In this document: piece after piece, positions 12,308 to 14,881 of the stretch | Layout of the letters: each line of letters opens with the position of its first letter | Position numbering within the stretch: position 1 is the stretch's first letter | Assembly: GCF_017876815.1 (NCBI RefSeq) | Contig: NZ_JAGIOS010000001.1 | Location: 2,760,001-2,792,000, forward strand | Direction: 5' to 3' | DNA: 32,000 bases | From: Sinorhizobium meliloti | GTDB taxonomy: Bacteria; Pseudomonadota; Alphaproteobacteria; Rhizobiales; Rhizobiaceae | Translations under genes and position numbers: made by a program | The notes under the pieces: generated by a model | Database searches by the model: none | Told to the model about the DNA's origin: nothing | The model's input: the letters and a program-made list of their open reading frames with translations, nothing else

Positions 12308-14881
12308 TCACACCCGTTCTACGAACCCATCCAGCACGCGCTTCTGCCCGGCGCGGTCGAAATCGATCGTCAGCTTGTTGCCCTCGATCGCCGCGATGTT
12401 GCCGTTGCCGAACTTGATGTGGAAGACCCGGTCGCCGACATTGAAGCGGGAGGGCTCGGCGCTCGTCGACTTGGCGACGAGCTCGCCTTCGATGGTGCGG
12501 GTGCGGGGGCCCGATTCGCCGTAACCGATGCGTTCGATGGCGTGGCCGGAGCGGGTGCCCCAGTTGTCTCGGGTGGCCTCCGACCGGTGCTGCTGGGCGC
12601 GTTTCCAGCCGGGCGTCTGGTAATTGTTCTCGAAGGGATCGGCCTTGTCGAAGCGCGACTGGCCGTAACCGCCGCGACCGTAACCGCCATAGGAGACCTC
12701 CTGTTCGGCCACTTCCACATGAGCGATCGGCAACTCGTCGAGGAAGCGCGAGGGAAGCGTCGATTGCCAGAGGCCGTGGATGCGGCGGTTCGAAACGAAC
12801 CAGATATGACAGCGGCGCTTGGCACGGGTGATGCCGACATAGGCGAGGCGGCGCTCCTCCTCCAGACCTGCGCGGCCGCCTTCATCCAGGGCGCGCTGAT
12901 GCGGGAAGAGCCCTTCCTCCCACCCCGGCAGGAAGACGGTGTCGAATTCCAGCCCCTTGGCCGAATGCAGCGTCATGATGGAGACGGCATCCATATTCTC
13001 GTTCTGCTCGGCGTCCATCACCAGCGCGACGTGCTCGAGAAAGCCGCGCATGGACTCGAAGGCTTCCATCGAACGAATGAGCTCCTTCAGGTTTTCGAGG
13101 CGCCCGGGCGCTTCCGCCGATTTGTCGGCCTGCCACATGGCGGTATAGCCGCTCTCGTCGAGGATCCGCTCTGCAAGTTCGGTGTGCGGCGTCGTTTCGA
13201 GCAATGTCTGCCAGCGGCGGAAATCGGCGACGACGTCGAAGAGGCCCTTGCGAGCCTTCGGCTTCAATTCGTCCGTCTCGACGATGTCGCTTGCCGCGGC
13301 CAGCATCGGGATGTCGCGGGCCCGGGCATAGTCGTGCAGGGTGCGGACGGTCGTCTCGCCGAGGCCGCGCTTCGGCGTGTTGACGATCCGCTCGAAGGCG
13401 AGGTCGTCGGCGGGCTGGCAGACGAGGCGGAAATAGGCCATGGCATCGCGGATTTCGAGCCGCTCATAGAAGCGAGGGCCGCCGATGACGCGATAGTTGA
13501 GGCCGAGCGTGACGAAGCGGTCTTCGAATTCGCGCATCTGGAAAGAGGCGCGCACGAGGATCGATATGTCGTTCAGATTGTGCTTCTTGCGCTGGAGCTG
13601 CTCGATCTCTTCGCCGATCGCGCGAGCCTCCTCCTCGGAGTCCCAGGCGGCATGAACATGCACCTTCTCGTCGTCGGGATTCGTGCGCTCGGTAAAGAGC
13701 GTCTTGCCGAGCCGGCCCTCGTTATGGGCAATCAGATGCGCCGCCGCGCCGAGGATATGCTCGGTCGAGCGGTAGTTGCGCTCCAGCTTGATGACCTTGG
13801 CGCCGGGGAAATCCTTCTCGAAGCGGAGAATGTTGTCCACCTCGGCGCCGCGCCAGCCGTAGATCGACTGGTCGTCGTCGCCGACGCAGCAGATGTTGAC
13901 GGTGGGTTGCCCCTCACCCCGGCCCTCTCCCCGTTCTGACGGGGAGAGGGGGGATTGCGAACGCGCCGCTTGTCCCTTCTCCCCGTCGGACGGGGAGAAG
14001 GTGGCCGGCAGGCCGGATGAGGGGCGATTTCGCGACGCTTGCGTCTGCTGGGCCAGCAGCCTCAGCCACATATATTGCGCCGTGTTGGTGTCCTGGTACT
14101 CGTCGACGAGGATGTAACGGAACTTGGCGTGATACTCCTTCAGCACGTCCGGATTGGCGCGGAACATGCGGATCGGATGCAGCAGCAGGTCGCCGAAATC
14201 GCAGGCATTCAGGGTCAGCAGCCGGTTCTGGTAGGCGGCATAGAGCTCGCGGCCCTTGCCGTTGGCAAAAGCGCGGGCATCGCCTTCCGGGATTTGCGAC
14301 GGGTCCAGGCCCTTGTTCTTCCAGGTGTCGATCATGCCGGCGAACTGCTTGGCCGGCCAGCGCTTGTCGTCGAGACCCTCCGCCTGGATGAGCTGCTTGA
14401 TGAGGCGAACGACGTCGTCGGTGTCGAGGATGGTGAAGTCGGACCGCAGGCCCACCAGCTCGGCATGGCGGCGGAGGAGCTTGACCCCGATCGAGTGGAA
14501 GGTGCCGAGCCAGGGCATGCCTTCGACGGCGTGGCCGACGAGCACGCCGATGCGCTCCTTCATTTCCCGCGCCGCCTTGTTGGTGAAGGTGACGGCGAGG
14601 ATCTGCGAGGGATAGGCGCGGCCGGTCGAAAGGATATGGGCGATCCGCGTCGTCAGAACGCGCGTCTTGCCGGTGCCGGCGCCGGCGAGCACGAGTACCG
14701 GACCTTCCAGCGCCTCGACTGCCTCCCGTTGCTCCGGATTGAGCCCGGAGACATAGTCCGGTCGCTGGGCCTTGTCGCGGGCGGCCATGGCGCGCGCGGC
14801 GATGCCGCCGTCGGCGGCCGCGGGTTTCCGCGGCGCGGGCTCCTCGTCGAAAAAGGGAATATCGTCAAAACCTTTGGTCAT
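12308..14881 (-). CDS. uvrD: ATP-dependent DNA helicase II (UvrD/PcrA/Rep superfamily 1), carrying a 48-codon repeat-derived insertion
   Basis: Helicase motifs present are Walker A (AGAGTGKT), motif II ([10 protein letters not shown]), motif III ([15 protein letters not shown]), LERNYRST, and later [13 protein letters not shown] and [12 protein letters not shown]. There is also a C-terminal Tudor-like tail ([14 protein letters not shown]). Confidence 0.95.
   Translation of the reverse strand: [857 protein letters not shown]
13901..14044. repeat. RIME-like two-hairpin mosaic element inserted in frame within uvrD
   Basis: The terminal inverted 8-mers are GCCCCTCA (13909-13916) and TGAGGGGC (14018-14025). 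The hairpins are ccctctccccgt-tctg-acggggagaggg (13923-13950) and ccttctccccg-tcgga-cggggagaagg (13975-14001). The segment gccgcttgtcccttctcccc...ggggagaaggtg.ccggcagg.ggatgaggggcg is nearly identical to the intergenic copy at 27300-27358. Confidence 0.85.

Follow-up and report, generated by a model that had tools for sequence, protein, structure and literature searches.

Palindromic repeats lying in frame within bacterial genes have been described before, most closely by Di Nocera et al. (2013, BMC Genomics 14:522, PMC3733652), who list a CGTC-3 repetitive extragenic palindrome (REP) encoding residues 278 to 288 (SSLPGSTRQSI) of the R. palustris UvrD protein RPE_2137. The same study reports REPs in UvrABCD, RecBCD, and polymerases, with such inserts enriched in repair genes, and finds that genes sharing a functional category have their REPs at different sites, Xanthomonas recB being the exception. 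Here we describe a comparable case in Sinorhizobium meliloti. In a 32,000-nucleotide stretch of contig NZ_JAGIOS010000001.1 (positions 2,760,001 to 2,792,000; hereafter the window, numbered from its first letter), the gene for the DNA helicase UvrD carries a palindromic repeat, which we call type A, between helicase motifs II and III. Both repeats stand in frame in the same UvrD intermotif gap, but the R. palustris insert belongs to another family and is a short single REP with a CGTC tag, whereas type A, at 112 to 117 nt and with no GTAG or CGTC tag at either end, is not a RAYT-type REP, a class of 20- to 40-bp palindromes in which one end bears such a tag.

Rickettsia palindromic elements (RPEs) are, as cited in PMC3733652, found in frame inside open reading frames (ORFs) that likely encode functional proteins. 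As far as that citation describes them, they resemble type A in being palindromic repeats of ~100 to 150 nt in frame in housekeeping genes; type A likewise lies inside the intact ORF of a conserved protein with the frame kept and no stop, a functional analogy. RPEs differ in lineage and sequence family, and their copies are spread over many genes, whereas many families at one codon gap, together with cassette replacement, are a feature of the uvrD case. Given the GC-rich rhizobial sequence of type A, its homology to the RPE sequence families (RPE-1 to RPE-8) is unlikely. The original RPE work is reportedly that of Ogata et al. in 2000.

S. meliloti 1021 has its own annotated palindromes, namely, the Rhizobium-specific intergenic mosaic elements RIME1/2, the Sm-repeats, and two palindromes named "AB" and "C" (Osteras et al. 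1995 and the chromosome paper, both as cited in PMC2573895). By that description alone, the RIME, AB, and C families are like type A in being Rhizobiaceae-restricted, intergenic, large palindromes with dozens of copies per replicon; they are described there as intergenic, whereas the uvrD copy is coding. [quoted passage not shown] Type A has traits of a MITE in that it is small (117 nt), has 8-bp perfect terminal inverted repeats, and contains no transposase gene.

In-frame repeats in repair genes are already known, and the new part is the hot-spot behavior of the uvrD gap. PMC3733652 holds a single list entry for UvrD, in which recurrence at the site, multiple families, and within-species polymorphism are not described, and neither recurrence at this uvrD gap nor the number of families nor within-species polymorphism was found in the searchable literature. 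Selfish palindromic DNA that survives in frame shows a way in which proteins acquire loops, a kind of event known already; in this case many unrelated repeat families have, across an order, colonized a single codon gap of a core repair helicase, and the gap remains polymorphic in a model symbiont. A natural experiment is offered by strains whose uvrD genes are 99.4% identical, with the cassette as the only difference, and by it two old questions become testable in a genetically tractable organism: do the repeats affect repair or mutation rate, and is their insertion targeted or filtered?

An intergenic-type repeat in the uvrD reading frame

The uvrD ORF called mechanically on the minus strand spans 12308 to 14890 (860 aa from a TTG at 14890), and database versions of UvrD start at the ATG at 14881 (857 aa). 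The window protein is 100% identical to its best protein match, S. meliloti P0001, and matches Pfam UvrD-helicase (2.3e-86) and UvrD_C (3.5e-66). An earlier note, made from the sequence alone, had proposed that an intergenic-type two-hairpin repeat sits in frame between motifs II and III, and coordinates, structure alignment, and family copies all bear this out. The 48 extra codons are exactly codons 283 to 330 (TQASRNR...GEGQPT), in frame and with 0 stops, so the divisibility by three and the open frame that the note described are both real. In phmmer searches against solved structures, the alignment ends at query residue 283/284 and restarts at 331/332, and the residues on either side of the insertion point are adjacent in PcrA (Q244|N245) and in E. 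coli UvrD (T240|G241). In the solved PcrA/UvrD structures, the insertion point thus lies within a short connection, between two neighboring residues, and the E. coli sequence that the note had given for this place, RLLAGDTGKVMIVGDDDQ, is correct. We take the loop to be part of RecA-like domain 1A, where it would join the helix after motif II to the motif III strand.

The repeat itself is shorter than the extra codons. The earlier note had set its borders at 13901 and 14044; the element occupies 13909 to 14025, and the remaining 27 nt are loop sequence beyond the repeat borders. Within these limits, the terminal inverted 8-mers (GCCCCTCA and TGAGGGGC) and the two perfect hairpins that it reported were recovered, each hairpin with an 11-bp stem (Table 1). 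The window contains 4 instances of the hairpin core pattern, whereas 100 shuffles give an expectation of 0.00, and the mRNA segment of the insert has a predicted fold of -90.7 kcal/mol (z = -7.2). Intrinsic terminators and promoters were also considered, and no terminator-like or promoter-like site was found in the insert.

A plasmid collection, used as a stand-in for whole genomes, shows how widely the repeat is dispersed. By BLAST, the type A segment matches 1279 places in 233 Rhizobiaceae-type plasmid records, with 10 to 19 per pSymB, and full-length matches to intergenic copies reach E = 4e-27; the proposal that the segment would have genomic copies beyond chance similarity is therefore upheld. 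The best 40 of the 1279 places carry no annotated gene, some of these records having little or no annotation. The matches fall in Rhizobium (118), Sinorhizobium (82), Shinella (16), Neorhizobium (6), and a few other genera, so that in these records type A is confined to Rhizobiaceae and near relatives. Three intergenic copies were retrieved, L089 and L090 from pSymB of strain 1021 and L091 from S. terangae. They are 112 to 114 nt long, are 81 to 85% identical to the uvrD copy, and share with it the GCCCCTCA…TGAGGGGC ends and the two hairpins in unchanged order; their hairpin loops have 4 nt, compared to 5 and 6 nt in the uvrD copy. A type A model detects the element in uvrD by nhmmer with E = 1.9e-27, the uvrD copy itself being part of the model, and further family copies lie in the window and in the flanks of other loci. 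The earlier note had credited the insert with the exact architecture of the intergenic element at 27195 to 27357, which does have two hairpins of the same type; that copy is 163 nt long and matches the uvrD element only partially (88% over 32 nt), and it is the 112- to 114-nt intergenic Sinorhizobium copies, rather than this one, that match the two-hairpin layout over its full length.

With this evidence, the prospect that the insert is no mobile-element copy at all and arose as a chance low-complexity expansion or an assembly artifact is close to nil. The low-complexity composition of the peptide, and nothing further, speaks for it; against it are the full-length matches to intergenic copies, the identical ends and the common hairpin layout of uvrD and intergenic copies, the identical protein on 301 contigs, and the absence of any hairpin-pattern match expected by chance.

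How does a helicase gene keep a palindromic repeat in its reading frame? Most probably, a type A repeat was captured in the uvrD frame and is carried as a tolerated passenger in a permissive, long-lived "repeat trap" loop. A nonautonomous, RIME/MITE-like palindromic repeat would have joined the frame in the short domain 1A loop, and it could persist there by having a length that is a multiple of three, by being a variant free of stops in the frame used, and by lying in a loop that presumably tolerates an unstructured stretch rich in Pro, Ser, Gly, Glu, and Arg. The uvrD copy reads CCGG where the family consensus is CTAG, which would give a TAG stop in the uvrD frame, and Arg stands at the CTAG-equivalent position in the uvrD type A copies whose right end is alignable as DNA or protein. 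The insert also has a practical effect. S. meliloti UvrD scores below the NCBIfam equivalog cutoffs (pcrA, 774.6 against 911.2; uvrD, 648 against 1144.45), some of the alignments being fragmented around the insert; because the insert splits the profile matches, the protein misses these cutoffs and receives generic names, and the low scores may lie behind RefSeq names such as "AAA family ATPase."

Recurrent filling of one codon gap across Hyphomicrobiales

The linker between motifs II and III was surveyed in 80 species-level uvrD loci across Hyphomicrobiales, 36 of which have linkers of 29 to 119 residues at the same gap, compared to a basal length of 20 to 24. Of the 120 UvrD proteins closest to that of the window, the linker is empty (…LLAQRPKGVPQNVCC) in 80, and 40 carry inserts of several unrelated kinds. 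Empty linkers of 22 to 24 residues are found in the Ensifer adhaerens group, Rhizobium, and Agrobacterium, and filled ones in every Sinorhizobium sampled and throughout the Bradyrhizobium/Xanthobacteraceae clade; other Sinorhizobium carry inserts unrelated to type A. The comparison of orthologues that the earlier note had proposed therefore reveals no single homologous loop shared by relatives, only empty linkers or unrelated inserts. In Ensifer sp. R-19, a type A family copy lies nearby and the uvrD site is empty. An alignment of 89 UvrDs identifies the motif II-III gap as the only large length-variable region in the helicase core, with at least 8 extra residues in 41 of them.

The inserts sort into seven multimember similarity groups and eleven singletons. 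When each insert was compared with its own 20-kb flanks, only the window yielded copies, and a cross-locus search found the rest: most groups match sequence outside the uvrD linker in the flanks of other species, often in both orientations, as expected of dispersed palindromes. One group, in Bradyrhizobium, Rhodopseudomonas, and Nitrobacter, encodes SLPGLTRQSI and is the CGTC-3 REP of Di Nocera et al.

The cassettes found at the gap in Sinorhizobium and its relatives are of three types. Type A is present in S. meliloti, S. kostiense, and Ciceribacter lividus, has dispersed copies outside uvrD, and is apparently flipped in C. ferrooxidans (a 36-nt match only). Type C, with 35-bp terminal inverted repeats, is found in S. 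terangae, BR816, S. fredii, and S. saheli and matches 335 places in 101 plasmid records. Its right flank was considered as a decayed type A end, and the similarity of ~65 to 70% was unconvincing in GC-rich sequence. Type B occurs in S. medicae, S. fredii HH103, and E. psoraleae, with related forms in Mycoplana, R. alarense, and Mesorhizobium, and is read in two different frames in different species. Two tandem type B copies are present in some species (L087, E. psoraleae; L019, Mesorhizobium sp. L-8-3; and L082). At its 3' junction, GCAGCAGAT-AAAT-ATCTGCTGC forms a perfect hairpin with native Ile-Cys-Cys codons, which hints at a template-switch origin or a preferred junction.

Replacement of one cassette by another is visible within S. 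meliloti. In the cluster of UvrD proteins at 90% identity, the type A form P0122 (= Q92NP4) is present on 301 contigs and the type C form P0123 on 29, and there are also 850-aa forms with a shortened type C. Over 8.6 kb, the window and another S. meliloti assembly (L093) differ by ~0.7%, and their uvrD genes are 99.41% identical outside the linker, in which one carries type A and the other the unrelated, MITE-like type C. The 250-column bin with the linker holds 86 differing columns, compared to 2 to 3 in neighboring bins, and this divergent patch is bounded by …CAGCAGACGCA and CCCACCGTCAAC…. Type A also stands at the same junctions in S. kostiense, whose uvrD is 88.0% identical and whose element is 93% identical, whereas closer relatives have type C (uvrD 93.8% identical) or type B (S. 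medicae, 90.5%). Insert type, then, does not follow the gene tree, and this mismatch together with the A/C polymorphism indicates that cassettes are replaced locally, probably either by new insertion and loss or by short-patch exchange via the near-invariant flanks. Type C is the cassette of the nearest outgroups, which makes it probable that type A is the derived S. meliloti allele. The "recent" insertion of the earlier note agrees with this derived state; a simple insertion into an empty site does not, because the gap was already occupied in the genus and a second cassette exists in S. meliloti.

Under the passenger explanation, unrelated palindromic repeats would have entered the loop, left it, and been followed by others on many occasions across Hyphomicrobiales, and whole cassettes A, B, and C would replace one another within Sinorhizobium, while selection would purge insertions everywhere else in the helicase core. 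Turnover at an occupied site may involve palindromes drawing in further palindromic elements, and the near-invariant flanking codons (…LRLLAQ on one side) could permit short-patch homologous exchange of cassettes between strains or species.

An intriguing question is whether the gap is merely permissive or is itself a preferred DNA target. Targeted integration of this kind is compatible with passenger status, and we consider it possible, if doubtful. It could take two forms: partly complementary codons, GCGCAGCNG (A-Q-R) and CTGCTGCGTC (C-C-V), could extrude the loop-coding DNA as a hairpin tip, or a resident palindrome would be the landing pad for elements that insert into palindromes. The exclusiveness of the site within the helicase core and its occupation by at least seven unrelated groups favor such targeting, as do the starts of types A and C a few nucleotides apart after a shared left flank, GGGTTC(G/C)…GAA. 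The flanks also pair in predicted folds, the type B junction hairpin uses native codons, an element has nested into a hairpin loop at 27084 to 27519 of the window, and the literature gives REPs as targets of insertion sequences (ISs) in Sinorhizobium (PMC3184786, PMC3733652). However, no shared target motif or duplication was seen around the type A copies examined, and the inverted repeat in the flanks is a consequence of amino acid conservation in a GC-rich genome and is present also in lineages with empty sites.

A further proposal makes the insert a contingency or mutator switch, in which runs of G or C and palindromes would cause reversible uvrD frameshifts or deletions that toggle repair, an extension of the speculation of Di Nocera et al. 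(PMC3733652) on hypermutable strains. Besides that speculation, two cases point this way: in S. meliloti Ak57, a frameshift within a type C insert puts uvrD motifs II and III out of frame with each other, and a contig of S. medicae has its uvrD split in two (308 + 508 aa). Both may be homopolymer sequencing or assembly errors, many "partial" UvrD proteins are simply contig breaks, and by far the most contigs (in S. meliloti, 301 + 29) have the ORF intact, which together leave a mutator switch highly improbable. The Ak57 uvrD, either a true pseudogene or the product of a sequencing error in a homopolymer, lies on CP090106.1 (L092), a 3.7-Mb replicon labeled pSymB that carries chromosomal-type genes (uvrD and rnhA), and is missing from the coding sequence table of that record. 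Many partial UvrDs in the S. medicae (P0153 to P0163) and S. fredii (P0144 to P0148) clusters are fragments, and several of the S. medicae fragments end inside the insert, which suggests assembly breaks at hairpins; partial UvrD proteins of this kind, in several draft assemblies, are another practical effect of the insert.

Tolerance or function of the insert

The earlier note left the choice between a tolerated and an exapted insertion, and the first fits while the second finds no support: the peptide is not conserved, the hairpins decay on one side, and only the frame is kept. One-sided changes, 0 of them compensated, have cost the copies in S. kostiense and Ciceribacter lividus some of their stem pairs and of the bases in their terminal repeats, and it is this one-sided decay in orthologues that leads us to read the insert as a tolerated passenger. 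The insert peptides are unrelated between cassettes, and the inserts conserve nothing beyond a length that is a multiple of three and a frame free of stops, to which the CTAG-to-CCGG difference belongs. Judging from these comparisons, the insert appears to be neutral for UvrD.

Exaptation would mean that the loop or its mRNA hairpins are functional, through partner binding, control of UvrD translation or stability, or a surface under an arms race. The retention of the filled state in all sampled Sinorhizobium and the whole Bradyrhizobium/Xanthobacteraceae clade, the frame that is always kept, and the perfect hairpins of S. meliloti with their strong mRNA structure (z = -7.2) might be taken this way. 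Yet cassette peptides are unrelated and are even read in different frames, insert lengths range from ~10 to 100 residues, the stems of orthologues show uncompensated decay, close relatives (the E. adhaerens group, Rhizobium, and Agrobacterium) do without an insert, and no terminator-like or promoter-like signal was found in the insert. A functional insert is therefore very unlikely.

Several observations weigh against the tolerated-passenger explanation. Unlike MITEs, type A has shown neither a target-site duplication nor a parent IS: no direct repeat is evident around the few copies inspected, namely, the uvrD copy and three intergenic copies, whose flanks share only A/T-rich dinucleotides, and no cognate transposase was identified, although no search aimed at a parent IS was made. 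For type B, no copy outside uvrD was found in the plasmid collection or the locus flanks, and this cassette, common to Rhizobiaceae and Mesorhizobium, has the look of a long-standing resident passed on by vertical descent. Vertical inheritance thus accounts for part of the recurrence, and not every filled site is an independent event; with no plasmid match for type B, we dropped the notion that all cassettes are repeats still dispersed today. The hairpins and terminal repeats of the S. meliloti copy are still perfect, which fits youth but equally conservation or gene conversion. The surface position of the loop, too, is presumed from the solved-structure alignment and the domain boundaries; an AlphaFold model built from a shallow (>85% identical) alignment was discarded (mean pLDDT, 36.7). 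Finally, a preference of such inserts for repair genes might have a meaning that goes beyond permissiveness.

A parallel in UvrB bears on this last point. The 42-residue uvrD insert peptide, searched against 1.84 billion representative proteins, matched a single other protein, the UVR-domain fragment P0121 (E = 2.4e-6), whose homologues are the C-terminal ends of Rhizobiaceae UvrB. At one position in the UvrB tail, after the UVR domain, type A-like (P0121), SPLxGEMS-type, or SPSPQRGEG-type (SPSPQRGEGARRADEG-type) peptides are found depending on the species, and the SPLxGEMS-type motif is present in 17 of 119 UvrB tail sequences (P0164 to P0282). These repeat-derived peptides indicate that a second excision-repair gene has a similar trap in its low-complexity tail, which fits the permissive-region explanation and keeps the question of a link to repair genes alive. 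In the boldest reading, the motif II-III linker would be a true integration and exchange hot spot for palindromic mobile DNA throughout Hyphomicrobiales, a natural "cassette site" within a repair helicase of essential type, with DNA structure (the complementary codons of the flanks and the hairpins already resident) recruiting unrelated families and swaps within species possibly altering UvrD dosage or switching the gene off by G/C slippage, and the UvrB tail would then reflect a real connection of nucleotide excision repair genes with palindromic repeats rather than tolerance alone; we hold this to be unlikely. The C-terminal linker of UvrD was also considered as a second repeat trap and was set aside, the variation there being mostly ordinary low complexity. 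In Pseudorhodoplanes (L075), this linker has 41 extra residues, including SPPPLRGKDREGGG, that look repeat derived and may be a second in-frame repeat in the same protein.

Feature coordinates and other repeats in the window

Table 1 Positions in the window of uvrD, its insert, and related repeats
Feature	Position	Strand	Remark
uvrD (DNA helicase II/PcrA-type SF1 helicase) coding sequence	12308..14881	-	857 aa + stop
Helicase motif III start, GDDDQSIY	13859..13882	-	sequence position
Hypervariable linker, 48 extra codons	13901..14044	-	no equivalent in the solved structures of UvrD/PcrA
Type A core repeat, 117 nt (39 codons)	13909..14025	-	full-length member of a dispersed two-hairpin rhizobial family
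Terminal inverted repeat GCCCCTCA	13909..13916		same end on intergenic copies
Arg codon CGG	13919..13921	-	intergenic consensus (…GGGCTAGGG…) gives in-frame TAG here; sequence reading
Hairpin CCCTCTCCCCG-TTCTGA-CGGGGAGAGGG	13923..13950		11/11 pairs, 6-nt loop
Hairpin CCTTCTCCCCG-TCGGA-CGGGGAGAAGG	13975..14001		11/11 pairs, 5-nt loop
Terminal inverted repeat TGAGGGGC	14018..14025		8-bp perfect partner of GCCCCTCA
Helicase motif II, DEYQDTN	14084..14104	-	sequence position
Family copy, left part	27054..27093		split in hairpin loop; right part 27510-27538
Intergenic relative, 163-nt variant, two CCTTCTCCCC-type hairpins	27195..27357		partial match

The repeat cluster near 27 kb is nested. A 416-bp unit (27094 to 27509) is inserted in the hairpin loop of the family copy at 27054 to 27538 and carries the 163-nt copy inside it. 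The unit has perfect 23-bp terminal inverted repeats (CTACGGCATGCACATATCTCTTG), is flanked by a 10-bp direct duplication, CCGCAGGCGG, at 27084 to 27093 and 27510 to 27519, and has a full-length, 96.7%-identical copy on another replicon, NZ_CP021802.1. It shows the classical signature of a MITE, and its position shows that such palindromes act as landing pads. One arm of a 48-nt inverted pair (3680 to 3727 and 27545 to 27592, 79% complementary and 24 kb apart) directly adjoins this cluster, and the pair is probably another dispersed repeat family.

At gathering thresholds, Rfam, which has no RIME-type family, finds in the window only the alphaproteobacterial two-piece (permuted) transfer-messenger RNA gene at 28960 to 29318 on the minus strand (RF01849, 311.6 bits). 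RIME, or the AB palindrome of the 1021 annotation, is a tentative identification of type A. Elsewhere in the window, a 138-nt direct repeat (7861 to 7998 and 8560 to 8697) is 79% identical, and three overlapping 48-nt copies at 30-nt spacing (TATGTCGATCC…GGCAGCGTC) occupy 8032 to 8139.

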